Shown here: positions 22,529 through 49,269 of the stretch, one piece after another | How positions within the stretch are numbered: position 1 is the first letter of the stretch | Layout of the letters: each line of letters begins with the position of its first letter | IMG/VR virus record: IMGVR_UViG_3300020465_001196 | Direction: 5' to 3' (one strand) | DNA: 64,000 bases | Origin: a virus | Taxonomy: Duplodnaviria > Caudoviricetes | Notes under the pieces: model-generated | Database searches by the model: none | Told to the model about the DNA's origin: nothing | The model's input: only the letters and a program-made list of their open reading frames with translations | Program-made: the position numbers and the translations under genes

Positions 22529-22652
22529 ATTCACAATGGTTCATAGTAGTTCATAGTGTTCACAGTTCTTTACTGTTGATCACATCACAGTACTGCGTGT
22601 AGGCTCATAGTAGCTCACAGTTGAATAACTGTCGTTTCTGTTGAGTTCATGG
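22529..22652. repeat. Helically phased GYTCAYAG repeats
   Basis: Units at 22529 (degenerate), 22539, 22549, 22558, 22603, 22613, 22645. Confidence 0.65.
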
Positions 22653-22917
22653 TTCTTACCGCGGGGTATACCTGTTATATTAGTTGTTTTATATTTAAAA
22701 TAGTACATTACAGAATTCTATACATTTAGCTAAAAATTTTTTACTGCAATTTTTTTAGCACCGCCCTATACATTACGTCTTACCTTTTTTGCCCAAAAAA
22801 TATAACAGCCGCCATAACCCTGGTCCCTAGGATTTGTCCTAGCGAATATTTACATGGTCGGCCAGGGGAAAATTATTTTATTTTTCTTTTTTCTTTTACG
22901 AAATAAATTTCATAAAA

Positions 22918-32485: not shown

Positions 32486-32512
32486 ATGTTATATTCCTCT
32501 CTGTTATTATTA

Positions 32513-32540
32513 ATAATAGCACGAGTTACAGATCTGTCAA
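32513..32540 (-). promoter_or_regulatory. Early sigma70-type promoter
   Basis: TTGACA-N16-TATTAT. Confidence 0.8.
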
Positions 32541-32577
32541 GTGTAAAAATTCCTTCCATTTTACACTACAAATTGTA

Positions 32578-32605
32578 TTGACGTAACGTGTAACTATGCT
32601 ATAAT
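32578..32605 (+). promoter_or_regulatory. Early sigma70-type promoter
   Basis: TTGACG-N16-TATAAT. Confidence 0.8.
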
Positions 32606-32625
32606 TTAAATAAAGAAAGGAACAA

Positions 32626-32838
32626 ATGGGAATAATATCTAAAGAGGCCGTAGATCTCTTAAACAAACTATGCAAATATAAATCATATACAGTACATCAC
32701 AAATATGCTAGACCTAGTCGTATACAGTTTAGATTAAAAAGAGATGCTAAAAAGTACTGTATACAACATAACCTAGATCACAGTAGCAGTTGGGTCTTAA
32801 CAACTTGTCATCATTATATTAAACCTAAAATAAAATAA
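32626..32838 (+). CDS. Small basic early protein
   Basis: AAGGA SD; own promoter. Confidence 0.6.
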   Translation: MGIISKEAVDLLNKLCKYKSYTVHHKYARPSRIQFRLKRDAKKYCIQHNLDHSSSWVLTTCHHYIKPKIK

Positions 32839-32847
32839 ATTAGGCTC

Positions 32848-32875
32848 TTGACAATATAGAAACCTATGCTATTAT
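32848..32875 (+). promoter_or_regulatory. Early sigma70-type promoter with no downstream ORF
   Basis: TTGACA-N16-TATTAT. Confidence 0.75.
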
Positions 32876-32880
32876 AATAT

Positions 32881-32966
32881 TATATCCGGTCGTAATTAAC
32901 TAGAGCAGAGAAAATTTAGAAAGAAAAGATCGTTACTCAAAGGTTGGGCCGAACTCTGACCTTTTT
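32881..32966 (+). ncRNA. Candidate ~85-nt small RNA
   Basis: Strong promoter upstream, no ATG, ends in hairpin AGGTTGGG/CTCTGACCT followed by TTTT. Confidence 0.4.
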
Positions 32967-33139
32967 ACCATGGCACATGATATAGTCATGACTTGACTAC
33001 ATATTGTTTGTCGCTGTTGTTCGCCGCGGTAAGTCATTGAAATTATTAGTCTTTTTTCACACAAGATGTTGTGTCGCGTTTATCACGATGATCACTATAT
33101 CTAGTGGCCAATTGTTACTGTACAGCAATGCGTACAGAC

Positions 33140-33236
33140 TGTTGTATTTTTGCAACACTCTGTGACTAATGTGTTGTAATTATGCAACACCCGAAATCTG
33201 TTGTATTTTTGCAACAGGTGTTGCAATTGTGCAACT
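33140..33236. repeat. Four 18-bp palindromic operators TGTTGYAWWWWTGCAAC(A/T)
   Basis: Copies at 33140, 33172, 33199, 33219. Confidence 0.75.
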
Positions 33237-33239
33237 CAT

Positions 33240-33545
33240 CAAAAACCCCAGAATTTCTCAACCTCCCGGCCCCTTCTCTCCTCTTTGAACCTATCCCCTC
33301 TTTGAGGCCCTTTGAACCTCTTTGAAGCCTTTGAGTGCTTTGAACCGCTTTGAGTGTCTTTGAGTGCTTTGAACGTCTTTGAAGGTGTAGCTGTTATCAC
33401 CTAACCATCCCCGTCATAACAGCTACTAGTATCTCTGGGCTCCATCATCTTTGTTGTAACACTGACCGCTGAGCATACTGAGTATACCAACTTGATCAAA
33501 ACAGTTCAGCACGGTTAGGATGTGTAACTCCTTCGATCCATAATG
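33240..33545 (-). ncRNA. Candidate structured RNA: ~165-nt folded domain plus UCAAAG repeat tail
   Basis: Own promoter; 11-bp perfect stem 33387-33397/33416-33426; 7-nt loop complementarity 33400-33406/33513-33519; closing helix 33381-33386/33529-33534; 3' end is an estimate. Confidence 0.45.
33283..33382. repeat. Ten CTTTGA copies, nine of them at 9-10 bp period
   Basis: 33283, 33300, 33310, 33320, 33329, 33338, 33348, 33358, 33367, 33377. Confidence 0.85.
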
Positions 33546-33551
33546 TTATTT

Positions 33552-33580
33552 AATATAGCAGTATACGATCATCATGTCAA
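33552..33580 (-). promoter_or_regulatory. Sigma70-type promoter with no long downstream ORF
   Basis: TTGACA-N17-TATATT. Confidence 0.75.
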
Positions 33581-33754
33581 CCATTTAATTAGTCTCGGAG
33601 AGACCACTAGATATAGTCATAATTAAATGAGGCCATTTTCAGAGGCTATAGGGGCCACCACAACATATAGTCATGGTGAAACCTACGCAGGTCTGGCGTA
33701 AATGACTACATATAGTCTCGGGGTTGACAATATCCTGACTAATCCTGGGATCCC

Positions 33755-33809
33755 TACAGCGGGGTCTGTATATGTTACAGCGGGGTCTACCGGCTTTACA
33801 GCGGGGTCT
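33755..33809. repeat. Three iteron-like TACAGCGGGGTCT repeats at exact 21-bp period
   Basis: Copies at 33755, 33776, 33797. Confidence 0.85.
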
Positions 33810-34210
33810 TCGCTATACAGCGTATATAAGATGATCACATATTCAAGCGAACAAATGATCAGGGGCCACAATCGTATGTGCTACGCCATGCAAAGAGTGA
33901 AACGTTTTGCATAAGAGCACATATGAAGCCGAAGGCCTGTGCGAAGCACAGTTGCAAGGAAGAGGTACGCTCTGTTTGTGAGCCATATGGCCATGGTAGG
34001 AAGCGATGATCAATGGTGATTATATGGTTAAGAGGCCATGGTTTACAGCATAGGTAATTACTTTTTTGATGGTGAAAAACGGGTAATGAGAGACGCGGTT
34101 TCTCTTTTTGAGTACCCTGTAATCATCATGCTCTGTATACTGTCTTATAGTGTTCATCTTGTACTATTCACTAGTATGTCGTATAGTGTGTCATTGAGTG
34201 TAATCGTGCT

Positions 34211-35456: not shown

Positions 35457-35867
35457 ATGAAACGATTAGATGTATCAGATAACACTTCTATTAGTATGCC
35501 AATCCGTAATATGATTGCCATCATTGGTGCCGTATGTTTGGGTGTTTGGGCTTACTTTGGTGTTACTGAAAAGATCAATCAACATAGCACTACTCTACAA
35601 TTAATTGATAAAGAAATAAAAGCAAACACAGAATTTAGAATCAAATATCCACGTGGCGAATTAGGTCAATCACAAAACGATCTAGAACAATTTATGCTTA
35701 TTGAAGAACTATACAAGTCAGTGGAAAAAATGGAAAAAGTATTAGAATCAAATATGACTAACAAAGTTAACATTGACTTCTTATCTAAACAAGTTGAAAA
35801 GATGTTAAATGATATTGAAAAGTTAAAAGACAAGCAAAGAGATTTTGCTAATGGAGATCACCAATGA
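35457..35867 (+). CDS. Membrane coiled-coil protein of a type recalled from SAR11 phages
   Basis: SDNTSISMPIRNMIAII...GVWAYFGV. Confidence 0.6.
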   Translation: MKRLDVSDNTSISMPIRNMIAIIGAVCLGVWAYFGVTEKINQHSTTLQLIDKEIKANTEFRIKYPRGELGQSQNDLEQFMLIEELYKSVEKMEKVLESNMTNKVNIDFLSKQVEKMLNDIEKLKDKQRDFANGDHQ

Positions 35868-44001: not shown

Positions 44002-47000
44002 TTAAGTTAATGCTTTGTATTCAACAGTAACTATACCAGCACCACCTGTTGGAGTTGACGCCGCACCACCTGACTGTAAGTAAGCCATTGTGAATGTAGC
44101 ACCACCTGCCGTAGCAGTTGCAAATGGAACATCAATTACGTATGTACCTGCTGTTTTAATATCAGCGTCAGCATTAGCTACGAAAGTAGTAGTACCGTCT
44201 GATAAAGTAACGTGATCAATTGAACCACCTGAGAAAGCAGTAGTTACGTGAACAGTCACTTTAGCAACATAGTAAGTTGTTGAACCTGCATTTGGCATAG
44301 AACCAATTGTAGTAGTTGTAGCACCTGAGGCGATCGCAGTTCTAATAGTTAGATCGTCTGTAGTAGTTACAACGTTAGCATTTACCCATGCTTTTGTAAC
44401 AAGAGTATCATCAGTAATAGTTAATGACTCATAGTTAGCTGGAACGTTAACAACACCATTACCTTTTGGAGAAAGTAATAAGTCGATGTGTGAATCACCA
44501 CCTGTAGTTGAGATCGCTGGAGCATTTGAAGTAGCCGCGTTCGTGATTGTAACTTCGTTTACAGCTGAAGCTGTTCTTTCGAAAATTGCAATCTCGTTGT
44601 TAGAAGAATCGTTAATTTTAACTTTACCTTCTGCAGAACCACCTGTACCACCTCTGATGATTACATCACCTGAAGCATTACCACCAGTACCGTTACCACC
44701 TTTGATAACCGCATCACCAGCCGCGCCACTGTTAGCCGCACCACCAGATACTGTTAAGTCCATATTATCGTCACCCATTACAAGTGAGTTACCACCTGCC
44801 GCTTCAGAGATAACAACAACACCATCGCCTTGTCCTTTAAGAACTAAATCGATATCTGCTGAGTTGTCATCTGGATCTGTTGCAGTAAGAGTTACGTTAG
44901 AAGCCGTGTTAGTCATTACTAACTTGATGTTATCAGTTAATGTACCTGATACTTCAATAGCTGATTTACCAGCCGCGTCTCTAAGAGCTGATACATAGTC
45001 ATATTGGTTAGCTGAACCAGTAGATCTTAAGTATTTGTTTACTGTTCCAACTGCCGCTAAACCTGTACCACCATTGCCTACTGGTAGTGTACCAGTAACA
45101 TCAGCAGTCAAGTCAGCTTGTGCATATTGTAATGTACCGCCTGAAGATACTTTAAGAACAGTTGAGTTAGAACCTTTTGCTAATTCAGATACTGTACCGT
45201 CACCATCAGTTGTGATGATTGAACTTGCCGCGAAAGCAGAAACGTTTGTACCTAAACCACCATTAGCCGCCGCAACAGTACCAGATAAATCTGATGCCGA
45301 TAAAGCAGAAGCTGAGAAGTTAGTTCCGTCTGATCTTAAGTATTGACCTGTTGAACCTACAGCGATTTCGCCACCGTCTGCTTCAACAAGTGAGTTGTTA
45401 CCATGACCTGAGATAGATGCACCGAAGCCACCATATGCTCTGCCGATAACTGTACCATTCCAAGTACCAGCCGCAATTGTTCCAAAACGCATAGTTGCAT
45501 CTGAAACAGAAGCTTGGTTAGCCGAACCAGTTTTGAACGTGAATGAATCTGTTGAATCATCAAAGTTCATGAATGCAAATTGGTTAGTGTTTGCTGTTGA
45601 TGATCTTTTGATCTCAACACCACCTGCTAAACCAGTTTCTTGCGAAGTTGCACCACTGTTTACTTGAATGTATTTGTCTTCTGAAGTTACAGTTCCAACG
45701 TCTAATGTAATAGAGTTACCTGAAACTGTTAAGTCACCTGTTACTGCTAGGTCACCAGTGATAGCCATTGAACCATCAATAGTTGCTGTTGAACCTAATG
45801 TACCAGTTGAGAAAGTAGTAACACCAGTGATTGAACCACCAGTTAGTGCTACTGAACCTGCGTCCTGAGTAGCAATTGAACCTAAGCCCAATGATGTTCT
45901 AGCAGTTGCGCCTGACTCTGCAACCCAAGTTGAACCATTACCAACGATAATGTTACCATCACCTTTAGCCAATGCCGCAATTGCGTCTAAGTCTGCATCG
46001 TATGCCTGAACGTTAGTGCCAATAGTTAAACCTAATGACGCTCTAGCAGTTGCACCAGTTTCTAACACGAAGTTAGAACCGTCACCAACGATGATACCAC
46101 CGTCTGTAACAGCCAAACCAGCAACGTCTGCCAATTGTGCATCATAAGCCTGAACATCTGAACCAATTGCTAAACCTAAGTTAGATCTAGTTGAGTTAGA
46201 GTCAGTTAATGTGATAGCACCTGTGTCTGCCAATGTTGCGTCACCTGACATAACATTGTCAATCCAAACTGAGTTACCTGTGTCATATAATAACATAGAT
46301 CCGTCAGCTGGAGTAGTTAAAGTAACATCACCCATTTCAGCCAGTGTGTTTGAAGCCGCAACAGAATCATCTACATATTTTTTAGTTGATGCATCTGTAT
46401 CAGCCGTTGGAGCACCCAAGCCAGTGATTTTTGCAGAAGACATTGCCGCACCGTTGAAAGTTGGCGTGTCACCTGTACCAAGACCTAATGAAGTTCTTGC
46501 TGTGTTACCTGATTCAGCAACAAAGTTTGAGCCATCACCAACAATGATGTTACCATCTGATGGAGTTAAGCCCGCAACGTCAGCCAATTGTGCATCGTAC
46601 GCCTGTACATCTGAACCAATAGCCAAACCTAAGTTTGTTCTTGCGTCAGAAGCCGTAGAAGCACCTGTACCACCGTGTGCAACAGCAACGTCAGTTGCCG
46701 CCCAAGTACCAGTTGCAATAGTACCTAGTGTAGTAATTGATGTTTGACCTGCGTAAGTAGATTTAATTTTTAAAGTATCAGAATCGATCTCTAAAGTAGA
46801 ATCATCAACGTTAACACTCAGGTTGTTACCTGATTTTGCTAAACCGTCGCCTGCTGTGATCAAACCAGCACCAGAAAACTGAGTGAAAGTCAATGCAGTT
46901 GTACCAACTGTGATAGAACCGTCATTTGTTAACACCCAACCAGTGTCTGCGTTTACAGTACCTTCTTCAACGAATGAGAAAGCACCAGGAGTTACTTCTG

Positions 47001-47418
47001 AGTTAGCATCGTAGTCAGTTGCTCTGTCTGGAGCGCCTGATGCCTTAACAGTATATATACCGTTTTCAGAACCGTCTGCCTGGTTTTTGATTAATATTCT
47101 GTCACCCGTAGCAAGTGACACACCGTCAATGGTATCACCATTAACGAAGTCTGAAGCAAGTGTTCCTGCCGCAGTAGTTGCCGCTCTAACTGAATCTTTA
47201 ACGTCAAGACCAGCCTTAGTAGCATCTACATATGATTTAGATGTAGCATCATTGGCATTTGATGGAGTTGAAGCAACTCTAACATTTGACAATGTTGAAC
47301 CATCTGTAGTAAATTTGAAGAAAGATGATGATGAATCATAAATTAATCTACCACCACTTTTACCAAATTGTACGTCAGAACCTATACCTGCTAGACCAAA
47401 GTTTTTAACTGTAGCCAT
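44002..47418 (-). CDS. Large Gly/Ala/Ser/Thr-rich virion structural (fibre-like) protein
   Basis: GLDVKDSVRAATTA...GDRILIKNQ...ENGIY domain; three internal repeats of GLAIGSDVQAYDAQLADVAGL...IIVGDGSNFV type. Confidence 0.75.
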   Translation of the reverse strand: MATVKNFGLAGIGSDVQFGKSGGRLIYDSSSSFFKFTTDGSTLSNVRVASTPSNANDATSKSYVDATKAGLDVKDSVRAATTAAGTLASDFVNGDTIDGVSLATGDRILIKNQADGSENGIYTVKASGAPDRATDYDANSEVTPGAFSFVEEGTVNADTGWVLTNDGSITVGTTALTFTQFSGAGLITAGDGLAKSGNNLSVNVDDSTLEIDSDTLKIKSTYAGQTSITTLGTIATGTWAATDVAVAHGGTGASTASDARTNLGLAIGSDVQAYDAQLADVAGLTPSDGNIIVGDGSNFVAESGNTARTSLGLGTGDTPTFNGAAMSSAKITGLGAPTADTDASTKKYVDDSVAASNTLAEMGDVTLTTPADGSMLLYDTGNSVWIDNVMSGDATLADTGAITLTDSNSTRSNLGLAIGSDVQAYDAQLADVAGLAVTDGGIIVGDGSNFVLETGATARASLGLTIGTNVQAYDADLDAIAALAKGDGNIIVGNGSTWVAESGATARTSLGLGSIATQDAGSVALTGGSITGVTTFSTGTLGSTATIDGSMAITGDLAVTGDLTVSGNSITLDVGTVTSEDKYIQVNSGATSQETGLAGGVEIKRSSTANTNQFAFMNFDDSTDSFTFKTGSANQASVSDATMRFGTIAAGTWNGTVIGRAYGGFGASISGHGNNSLVEADGGEIAVGSTGQYLRSDGTNFSASALSASDLSGTVAAANGGLGTNVSAFAASSIITTDGDGTVSELAKGSNSTVLKVSSGGTLQYAQADLTADVTGTLPVGNGGTGLAAVGTVNKYLRSTGSANQYDYVSALRDAAGKSAIEVSGTLTDNIKLVMTNTASNVTLTATDPDDNSADIDLVLKGQGDGVVVISEAAGGNSLVMGDDNMDLTVSGGAANSGAAGDAVIKGGNGTGGNASGDVIIRGGTGGSAEGKVKINDSSNNEIAIFERTASAVNEVTITNAATSNAPAISTTGGDSHIDLLLSPKGNGVVNVPANYESLTITDDTLVTKAWVNANVVTTTDDLTIRTAIASGATTTTIGSMPNAGSTTYYVAKVTVHVTTAFSGGSIDHVTLSDGTTTFVANADADIKTAGTYVIDVPFATATAGGATFTMAYLQSGGAASTPTGGAGIVTVEYKALT

Positions 47419-47916: not shown

Positions 47917-49269
47917 TTACATTAAGTTAATTAATACTTCGATAACACCTGTTTCGCCATCGAAATCTTCTAATGCTTTACCAATCATGTGACCACATTT
48001 TGCTTCGCCAGCCATAGCATGACCTGCCACGTCTGAAGTGCAAAGTAAATCACCTTTTCTAACTGTACCTGCAACTTTACAAGGAACTCTTCCTGTTAAA
48101 GCCACGTATGGGTGTGTAGCGTCACTACCTGCTTCTGAGTTCATCATGTAAGCTGGAGCTGAAGATACAACACCTGCTACTTTATGATCATAACCTGTTG
48201 AAGACATAGTAATTTCTTTGTCGCCACCGAAGATAACAACTGTACCAGCATCATATTGTGCGTCTGATTCGTATCTCTCAGCCAAATCCGCGTATTGCGC
48301 CGATGTTGCTGTAGCAGTAATAGTACCTGCCGCAAAGTTACCTGAACCATCTCTAATTACAACTTTGTTTGCTGTATTAGCCGTAGCCGCATCATTCATT
48401 GATAATGATTGGTAGTATGTTGTACCGTCTAAAGTTAATTCCCAAACATCTGATGTTTCGTTCCATCTGAAGTCAACGTTTGCAGAAGTACCTCTGTTTA
48501 CTTCGATACCTGCGTTGTCTGATGGTGCACCAGTTTCGTTTGAGTTTAACTCAATAATGTTATCAGCTAATTTGATTGTCTCAGTATTAACTGTTGTAGT
48601 TGTTCCTGATACTGTTAAGTCACCAGATACAATAACGTTGTTTGAAAACGTTTTGTTTCCAGCGATTGTTTGTGTACCAGTTACCATCGCATATCTGGCA
48701 TCCGCATATGATCTAGGTATAGCTGATGAATCACCAACGTTACCTGTACCAACACCAAGGATGTCATTTGAATTTAATTGTAAGTCGTTATTGAAGTCGA
48801 TTTCTGAACCTGTTGATGAAATTGCTTTTCCATCAGTAAGTTGAACGTTACCTTTAAGTGCAATTGCACCTGTAGCCGGAGTTAATTCAACATCACCTGA
48901 ACCTAATGCTTTAACGATAACATTTTCGTTAGTGTCACCTGATAATGTTACATCACCAGAATCAACACCCATCGCCGCTACACCATTAATGTAAAGTGTA
49001 GAAGGACCTACGTAAATATCACCCCACATAGCAGACGATGAACCTAAGTTATAAGTTACGTTTGCTGAAGGTATTAAGTGAGCACCAATTGAAGTAGATG
49101 CTACGTTTGATAAATCGATTTTCGCTAACTCGTGTCCGCCTGCTTGTGAACCGTCATGTACGTGAACTGAATTACGTGTAGTATTGACTGTTAACTCACC
49201 TGCTAAACCAGTAAAAGAACCGTGCTCTGTTGCTGTTCCTCTACGTCTTTGAATTGCATAACTTGCCAT
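47917..49269 (-). CDS. Fibre-like virion protein with Mtd-like N-terminus and C-terminal autoproteolytic chaperone-like domain
   Basis: IQRRRGT...GELTVNT...VHDGSQAGG; ADLAERY...VAGVVS...VALTGRVPCKV...KGDLL. Confidence 0.75.
   Translation of the reverse strand: MASYAIQRRRGTATEHGSFTGLAGELTVNTTRNSVHVHDGSQAGGHELAKIDLSNVASTSIGAHLIPSANVTYNLGSSSAMWGDIYVGPSTLYINGVAAMGVDSGDVTLSGDTNENVIVKALGSGDVELTPATGAIALKGNVQLTDGKAISSTGSEIDFNNDLQLNSNDILGVGTGNVGDSSAIPRSYADARYAMVTGTQTIAGNKTFSNNVIVSGDLTVSGTTTTVNTETIKLADNIIELNSNETGAPSDNAGIEVNRGTSANVDFRWNETSDVWELTLDGTTYYQSLSMNDAATANTANKVVIRDGSGNFAAGTITATATSAQYADLAERYESDAQYDAGTVVIFGGDKEITMSSTGYDHKVAGVVSSAPAYMMNSEAGSDATHPYVALTGRVPCKVAGTVRKGDLLCTSDVAGHAMAGEAKCGHMIGKALEDFDGETGVIEVLINLM

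Follow-up and report, generated by a model that had tools for sequence, protein, structure and literature searches.

We describe here an element in a 64,000-nucleotide stretch of viral DNA, IMG/VR record IMGVR_UViG_3300020465_001196 (Duplodnaviria; Caudoviricetes), the whole of which we refer to as the window. The element occupies the minus strand between positions 33580 and 33240 and consists of a promoter, a folded 5' domain and an array of ten UCAAAG hexamers. It behaves as a non-coding RNA (ncRNA) gene and is a new RNA family whose logic is of a known kind, so far known from one clade of uncultured marine phages. We consider it very probable that the product is a functional structured RNA.

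The element was present in 12 sequences, which represent six variants: the window, a complete 328-kb phage genome and ten metagenome contigs. The complete genome (G001; IMG/VR contig 3300020477_000990, with direct terminal repeats) was the closest relative found, and its part L001 was the only one of 35 loci around relatives of an anchor gene (35457-35867) to carry the element. Over the surrounding 1.7 kb (32486-34210), a region with no open reading frame (ORF) of 100 amino acids or more that we call the hub, L001 and the window share 72% DNA identity. Their alignment contains an identical promoter, an identical 30-nt block and ten identical hexamers, with differences in the first 100 nt and in the spacers. 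The ten metagenome contigs were found by a scan with two 11-mers, GGAGCCCAGAG and CACCTTCAAAG, lying 35-60 nt apart; these 22 bases are invariant by ascertainment and were not counted as evidence of conservation. The order of promoter, domain and array was the same in all 12 sequences, and all six variants had a domain of 161-166 nt and 9-10 hexamers. A covariance model of the domain, R1, scored 161-173 bits on every copy and found no extra copies in 46 related loci, and cultured phage genomes gave no match to the element. An earlier reading of this DNA, made from the sequence without database searches (the original prediction), had recognized no known family. This was borne out, as a search of the whole window with Rfam 15 at gathering thresholds returned four tRNAs only, and a scan of 32800-34100 at E<=10 gave four matches at chance level (11-17 bits).

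The promoter (33580..33552, minus strand) is an early promoter of the sigma-70 type. The leftward TTGACA-N17-TATATT promoter of the original prediction was indeed present, with 11 of 12 consensus matches and a TG-extended -10, and was kept in all six variants as TTGAC[AT]-N17-TG[CT]TATATT. From its position, transcription would start near 33544-33546.

The structured 5' domain of ~160 nt extends over 33385..33545 on the minus strand. RNAalifold, run on the twelve domains, returned three helices with compensatory changes in 7 of 21 pairs: the P1 helix (33532-33538 with 33494-33500), the P2 hairpin (33468-33491) and the P3 hairpin (33387-33426). The P3 stem is a perfect 11-bp helix in the window (33387-33397 with 33416-33426) and reaches 13 pairs around one G.G. 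Its loop contains GGUUAGG (33400..33406), the exact complement of CCUAACC (33513..33519), which lies ~107 nt upstream in the apical loop of P1. Both the perfect hairpin and this loop pairing had been proposed in the original prediction, and both were maintained by compensatory changes across the six variants. All 7 pairs of the pseudoknot were 100% kept, and two of them, in the center, had changed on both sides (A-U / G-C / G.U and A-U / U.G / U-A). The inner part of P3 contained a further A-U to G-C double change, seen by eye in the model-based alignment, and in the L001 variant one base had been lost from each arm of P3 with the stem intact. The invariant block GGAGCCCAGAG (33433-33443), one of those used to find the metagenome homologues, is unpaired.

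We counted pairs over P1, P2, P3 and the loop-loop pairing of the original prediction, 28 pairs and 168 cells in all. Pairing was possible in 99.4% of the cells, versus 25-47% when the 3' partners were slid by 1-3 columns. Covariation among the 12 collected homologues was one of the tests to which the original prediction had submitted itself, and it came out in favor of a folded RNA: both sides had changed in nine of the 28 pairs (two in P1, two in the pseudoknot, four in P2 and one in P3), a number that none of 500 shuffles reached, with the caveat that the fold was derived from the very sequences, six variants, on which covariation was counted. G.U pairs filled 18 of the 168 cells, including an invariant U.G in P2. 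Since these cells would be A.C mismatches on the plus strand, the fold exists only in the minus-strand sense, a point in favor of RNA rather than a DNA cruciform or a transcript of the plus strand. Folding energy by itself was modest, with z-scores of -2.7 in the 162-nt domain and -2.3 in the complete RNA (-1.2 in the opposite strand). The predicted architecture supported by covariation is thus one of three hairpins, with a 7-bp kissing pseudoknot between the apical loops of P1 and P3.

Other stems of the original prediction did not survive the comparison. Its closing helix GAAGGA/ACCUUC and its stem GCUGA/UCAGC use bases of the covarying P1 and P2, respectively, two helices that were absent from its fold, and neither stem was kept in the other variants. 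Of GUUACAC/GUGUUAC, a 4-bp core with one compensatory change was retained in four of the six variants, and the full 7-bp stem was not kept.

The array begins 5 nt after the domain. As had been predicted, ten exact UCAAAG hexamers follow directly (33283-33382, minus strand), spaced 17, 10, 10, 9, 9, 10, 10, 9 and 10 nt apart, a density far beyond chance in 100 nt. Counting the preceding base, they form ten YUCAAAG units (33283..33383) with spacers of 2-4 nt and one spacer of 11 nt before the last unit. Over both strands of the window TCAAAG occurs 58 times against 52.8 expected, and in the whole 328 kb of G001 adjacent pairs of the hexamer are confined to this array. The tail was conserved hexamer by hexamer: across the six variants 59 of 59 hexamers were exact, while 12-50% of the spacer columns differed between variants. 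At orthologous places the spacer was 2, 3 or 4 nt long (a spacing of 8-10), and in each array a single spacer of 10-13 nt, ahead of the last or second-last unit, widened the spacing to 16-19.

The spacers have a composition of their own. A pyrimidine (C or U) preceded the hexamer in 52 of the 53 unit-preceding spacers, and the other spacer bases (A46, C47, G91, T3) were 69% G+C in a genome of ~31% G+C. The array, at ~45-50% G+C, is the richest DNA locally. The asymmetry, with U nearly absent and G twice as frequent as C, points to selection on one strand. Avoidance of U in the spacers would keep the A-rich motif from local pairing, and strand asymmetry together with flexible spacing would be easier to reconcile with a single-stranded ligand than with phased duplex sites. 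TTCAYAGT units ~10 bp apart form a looser array at 22529-22654 on the plus strand, just past a pair of terminator hairpins of that strand at the distal end of the early-gene island. We rejected it as a counterpart of the UCAAAG array, from which it differs in motif and regularity; it fails the array detector and is read as a different element. Scans for TCAAAG-array patterns in viral contigs returned mostly perfect tandem 9-10-mers in unrelated viruses. Seven unrelated viral contigs (L055, L069, L146, L161, L162, L165 and L171), some of them binned as metagenome-assembled genomes (MAGs) of giant viruses, have a TTGACA-type promoter followed at the transcript start by 4-6 perfect tandem TCAAGCAAS-like 10-mers (TCAAAGCAAG or TCAAAGCAAC).

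Downstream of the array is a G-rich tail (33240..33282) with a U-run at 33241-33245. The original prediction had set the 3' end near 33240 at a weak hairpin and U-run. The U-run is there; a terminator scan detected no terminator-like site on the minus strand after the array, and the position of the 3' end is not fixed by a terminator. The sequence of the tail varies among variants, and the L001 variant instead has a GC hairpin, GGCCCC/GGGGCC. The further statement that the transcribed DNA holds only an 8-codon ORF is correct for ATG starts near the 5' end and incorrect for mechanically called ORFs, which include one of 53 amino acids with a GTG start (33239-33400) and one of 32 amino acids with a TTG start, both on the minus strand. 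Neither frame was conserved among variants, and the ATG ORF within the conserved block had 15, 7 or 0 codons depending on the variant. Coding is excluded because indels in the array and the domain change every reading frame between variants. The two general hallmarks of an ncRNA, helices with compensatory substitutions and no conserved frame, are therefore both found here, in the pair counts and the indels.

Contigs assembled from metatranscriptome libraries of three studies, at a depth of 2-7, cover 33220-33371, 33295-33446, 33382-33529 and 33405-33608. These are assemblies without strand, ends or abundance, for which DNA carry-over is possible and in which the uncovered parts are uninformative. 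The sequence of the locus does occur in RNA libraries, and we count this as weak support for a transcript.

A more distant relative argues in the same direction. A scan with the conserved block of the neighboring convergent transcript (see below) returned eight viral contigs, among them L193, which is syntenic with the window and shares its iterons, boxes, palindromes and flanking genes. In the same orientation and place as in the window, L193 has a TTGACA-17-TATACT promoter, a leader of ~155 nt and an 11-unit array composed of five UCAAAG, four UCAAUG, one UCAAGG and one UCAUUG, with a spacing of 8-11 and one gap of 19. The leader is too diverged for reliable detection by the model: R1 scored 5.4 bits on it with filters off, in a weak match that keeps the order of the P1 ends, GAUCAG and GAGCCC-GAGA. 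From this architecture it follows that promoter, leader and array in one orientation predate the strict UCAAAG family, and their conservation in L193 favors a transcribed function. The remaining relatives lack the array RNA. The TCACTR arrays of L192 and L196-L198 were considered as homologues of the UCAAAG array and rejected, as their spacing is irregular (11-26) and they look like half-sites of CACTATAT..TAGTG boxes.

What might such an RNA do? Our best guess, which we hold tentatively, is that it is an early phage ncRNA of ~300 nt that serves as a multi-site single-stranded protein-binding platform or sponge. Leftward transcription from the near-consensus early promoter would produce the ~300-nt RNA. 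Its ~160-nt front would fold into P1, P2 and P3, with the kissing P1 and P3 loops giving a compact body, and the tail of 9-11 YUCAAAG units would present a multivalent single-stranded platform, its hexamers bound by many copies, or an oligomer, of one protein. The tail could wrap or assemble an oligomeric RNA-binding protein, or, soon after infection begins, it could titrate many copies of an RNA-binding protein of the host or the phage, and the folded body could nucleate binding or shield the 5' end. The protein sponge of the original prediction, a scaffold plus a repeated motif, therefore still stands as the best guess, with a mechanism that we infer. A more specific picture is possible, if rather doubtful: the kissing-loop body could nucleate the wrapping or polymerization of a roughly decameric RNA-binding protein on the ten UCAAAG units, by a logic like that of TRAP or gp32 applied to a free-standing RNA. 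Early in infecting an abundant marine bacterium, the phage might in this way capture a host RNA-handling factor or build a phage ribonucleoprotein, and the single site in the convergent transcript could be the natural target that is competed with.

Very few phage regulatory RNAs are understood, and almost none of these is from an uncultured giant phage of the open ocean. Here the ligand signature is unusually clean, in that strict selection holds ten hexamers identical while the sequence between them drifts, so that a simple RNA pull-down should suffice to find the partner.

Several observations weigh against a platform or sponge. A thermodynamic model gave the motifs an unpaired probability of just ~0.45-0.6, and their mean spacing of ~10 equals one turn of duplex DNA. 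The partner protein was not found: searches of ten flanking ORFs with Pfam, PHROGs, PADLOC and NCBIfam yielded no informative family. Atlas searches found no informative relatives of either flanking small protein. A gene for a 113-amino-acid protein accompanies the RNA in all the longer contigs, and the AlphaFold model of this protein had a pLDDT (predicted local distance difference test) score of 42 and was unusable. TCAAAG was not enriched in the phage 5' leaders of G001 (4 occurrences versus a mean of 7.3 for permuted hexamers), and there is therefore no visible set of phage mRNA targets. The comparison covers only six independent variants of a single narrow clade. Two RNA-library contigs overrun the limits of the proposed transcript, one reaching upstream of the promoter to 33608 and another beyond the U-run to 33220, and its strand and ends are predictions. 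Finally, the DNA repeats that are unique to the hub mean that the array or transcript may serve replication or regulation at the DNA level. Pairing of the hexamer with a tRNA-Gln anticodon loop was also considered and dropped, as the phage tRNA-Gln loop pairs only through two wobbles.

Two known systems offer the closest comparison for a platform. In the T4 gene 32 operator a 5' pseudoknot precedes an unstructured UUAAA/UAAA tract and nucleates cooperative protein binding along it (PMC535899). The resemblance, that of a 5' pseudoknot followed by short A-rich repeats in a T4-type phage, is one of architecture only. The T4 operator is a ~70-nt mRNA leader ending in the gene 32 ribosome-binding site, whereas the element is a free-standing RNA with no gene behind it, a 160-nt body of three hairpins with kissing loops, and UCAAAG repeated 9-11 times. 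Its array is followed by palindromes and a convergent promoter, and the gp32-like gene of G001 lies ~105 kb away. That gene (L190 1270-1386; ~232.9 kb in G001) has a sigma-70-type promoter, a leader hairpin and four AGGCWAW motifs at intervals of ~10 nt that extend into the ribosome-binding site, and its leader may be the counterpart of the T4 gene 32 autoregulatory operator. A sponge for gp32 was considered and rejected, as this leader repeats AGGCWAW and not UCAAAG. The targets of TRAP have 9-11 NAG repeats with non-conserved spacers, and the RNA is wrapped round an 11-mer ring (PMC1474065). The element is like the TRAP targets of Bacillus trp leaders, whose copy number corresponds to the number of subunits in the ring, in having 9-11 short motifs separated by short, non-conserved spacers. 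It differs in that TRAP sites are NAG triplets with spacers of ~2-3 nt and a period of 5-6 in mRNA leaders of Firmicutes, while here hexamers recur every 8-10 nt in a phage ncRNA, for which no TRAP-like protein is known. TRAP and the T4 gene 32 operator are the nearest precedents in logic, and the element belongs to neither.

The idea of titration has its own precedents. CsrB/RsmZ and CrcZ are ncRNAs with many copies of one protein-binding motif that act by titrating CsrA and Hfq/Crc, respectively. The element shares with them the many copies of one short motif. In CsrB/Rsm RNAs, however, the motif is GGA in hairpin loops and in CrcZ it is A-rich, AANAANAA, whereas here it is UCAAAG and GGA is not the repeated element; the regular spacing, the separate pseudoknotted body and the lack of an Rfam match also set the element apart from these sponges.

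The neighborhood of the element bears on any alternative. The hub is bordered by a gene for a 104-amino-acid protein on one side and by the first gene of the minus-strand early-gene island on the other, and all 1.7 kb of it is conserved in every variant. Three iterons, GACCCCGCTGT, lie exactly 21 bp apart at 33754-33809 and are invariant. Directly after the array are four 16-bp palindromes, GTTGYA-N4-TRCAAC (33139..33239). These are DNA sites and not RNA hairpins, because their half-sites vary (C/T) independently, without compensation, and a dimeric DNA-binding protein probably uses them as operators. NrdR-box-like palindromes, [CG]ACTATAT-N-TAGT[CG], are kept upstream of the promoter in all variants (33583..33720). 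In the window such palindromes flank the RNA gene at 32974-32990, 33091-33107, 33605-33621, 33659-33675 and 33702-33716, and the nearest abuts the -35 of the RNA promoter; the upstream ones are candidate operators for it. In the 328 kb of G001 the iterons, the GTTGYA-N4-TRCAAC palindromes and the full NrdR-like palindromes are all confined to the hub. Several unique repeat sets in one locus resemble an origin or a master control region, and the iterons lend the hub an origin-like signature.

A role linked to replication is the serious and main rival, although we regard it as unlikely. According to this explanation the hub is an origin or copy-control locus and the transcript is a primer, an R-loop former or a control RNA, whose folded body steers the hybrid formed by the purine-rich tail. 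Promoter-driven R-loop origins occur in T4-type phages, and in ColE1 RNA II the 3' part is governed by a folded 5' domain that the RNA requires. Like ColE1 RNA II and T4 oriF/oriG, the element is a promoter-driven, ORF-free transcript amid DNA repeats: a strong promoter fires into DNA without ORFs, three repeat sets confined to the hub of the 328-kb relative are kept in every variant, and the tail RNA, purine-rich and nearly free of U, would suit hybrid formation. A primer or R-loop role leaves the 59 exact hexamers unexplained, however, and the ColE1 and T4 examples lack an exact array of short repeats. T4 origins need an AT-rich unwinding element, whereas the array is the most G+C-rich DNA locally and so no such element. 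For an iteron-type origin, in which direct repeats of fixed spacing are bound as duplex DNA beside an AT-rich unwinding element and usually an initiator gene, the signs are mixed: the hub has its separate 21-bp-spaced iterons, and the UCAAAG array has variable spacing and strand-asymmetric, G/C-rich spacers. The cumulative GC skew of the 328-kb genome tracks the direction of transcription and shows no origin-like extreme at the hub, and no initiator, helicase or primase gene was recognized among the ten flanking ORFs.

We judge it improbable that the array acts instead as duplex DNA, with CTTTGA/TCAAAG sites bound by an initiator, a partition-type or a winged-helix protein and with transcription incidental or regulatory. 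Winged-helix and centromere-binding proteins typically have sites that are direct repeats one helical turn apart, and the mean spacing here is 9.6-10 bp. The neighborhood is rich in other repeats that look like DNA sites, and a further CTCAAAGG occurs in an invariant 28-nt block 350 bp away. Orthologous spacings nevertheless shift by 1-2 bp (8, 9 or 10), which would rotate sites by up to ~70 degrees. The asymmetry of the spacers (A46 versus T3, G91 versus C47) and their 69% G+C would not be expected for duplex recognition, and the array always sits 5 nt past a covarying domain and behind a conserved promoter, with the link of promoter, leader and array preserved even in L193.

It is very unlikely that the RNA is a decoy substrate or inhibitor of a sequence-specific host endoribonuclease, in the style of toxin-antitoxin or abortive-infection systems. 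Phages do carry pseudo-ToxI repeats, and the element resembles ToxI and pseudo-ToxI as a repetitive ncRNA that a phage could use against a host ribonuclease; an RNA made early, with the same short single-stranded site many times over, would be well suited to compete as a substrate. ToxI itself is processed into ~36-nt units, each a pseudoknot in complex with ToxN, and its gene adjoins toxN. The original prediction had offered a mimic of type III antitoxins as one option, and this part of it fails: the period here is 8-10 nt, with units of ~10 nt against ~34-36 nt for the pseudoknot repeats of type III antitoxins (ToxI, CptI and TenpI), and the ten flanking ORFs contained no toxN-, cptN-, tenpN- or abiQ-like gene and no other defense family. 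We know of no ribonuclease with UCAAAG specificity, and a text search for the motif gave nothing relevant.

More unlikely still is a cis-acting transcription element heading the early region, whether a put- or nut-like antiterminator RNA that modifies RNA polymerase or a rut-like tract on which Rho loads to stop transcription ahead of the convergent unit. The element does immediately follow the first promoter ahead of the minus-strand early island, with no intrinsic terminator after it and a conserved convergent promoter 400 bp downstream, and every unit of the array, at a spacing of ~10 nt, contains a YC dimer. Against this, the array is G-rich (G > C), unlike rut sites, which are rich in C, poor in G and not conserved base for base; and operators and the convergent unit separate the RNA from the next gene. 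That a small repeat protein or peptide is encoded across the array is almost certainly wrong, for although ORFs run through it (the 53-amino-acid GTG ORF in the window and ~95 codons in L001, TCAAAG being free of stops in all frames), its period of 8-10 nt is not a multiple of 3, single-base indels shift the frame within it, start codons are not conserved, no ribosome-binding site is present and the alignments contradict coding.

If the tail of the proposed platform captures a host factor, the RNA would represent a new RNA-made strategy against the host or its defenses. If the RNA belongs to an origin-like hub, it would be a first clue to the initiation or control of replication in 300-kb marine phages. 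In both cases the family is absent from current RNA databases.

The convergent transcription unit is conserved more widely than the RNA. Its promoter, TTGACA-N16/17-TATTAT (32848-32875, plus strand), is conserved and drives a ~90-125-nt ORF-free region of the plus strand (32848-32986 in the window). The region is also found in L001, L176, L174, L193, L192, L195-L198 and L216, which include relatives without the UCAAAG-array RNA. Its 3' part holds the invariant block of ~28 nt, TACTCAAAGG-N-TGGGCCGAACTCTGACC, which includes CUCAAAGG and contains the array motif once. No covarying structure emerged from RNAalifold in the region, and Rfam gave no match to it. In L192, L196-L198 and L216, irregular arrays of the half-site TCACTR take the place of the NrdR-like boxes. 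L216 (PBJN01000001.1), the one contig matched in a scan of genome contigs with the invariant 26-nt block, is 19.7 kb long, was binned as a Porticoccaceae MAG, and carries the block in a hub of the array-less type. The contig says nothing firm about a host: it may be phage DNA placed in the wrong bin, or else a clue to what that relative infects.

On the other side of the element, upstream of the iterons, conserved non-coding DNA extends over 33830-34210 (minus strand). It contains an invariant hairpin block, AAAAAGAGAAACCGCGTCTC, and hairpins with changes that look compensating, for example ACTGTGCTTCGCACAG versus AATGACCTTCGGTCATT, and an RNA-library contig spans 33752-34043. This DNA may encode a further structured RNA.

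The window as a whole has ~30% G+C and the gene content of a phage, with an endolysin, PHROG families, radical-SAM genes and four tRNAs. For single genes, its closest cultured relatives are Pelagibacter phages, to which the anchor gene at 35457-35867 shows 45-58% amino-acid identity, and HTVC010P shares a 215-bp DNA match with the window. An AAA protein of the window resembles proteins of T4-like and jumbo phages. Near-identical DNA was present in marine and seawater metagenome runs from several studies. The window also codes for a 450-amino-acid protein (47917-49269, minus strand) that matches Mtd_N, the N-terminal domain of the major tropism determinant, at E = 2e-13. It adjoins an ORF of 1138 amino acids (44002-47418, minus strand) in a region of raised G+C, and the region of the Mtd_N protein may be the target of a diversity-generating retroelement.

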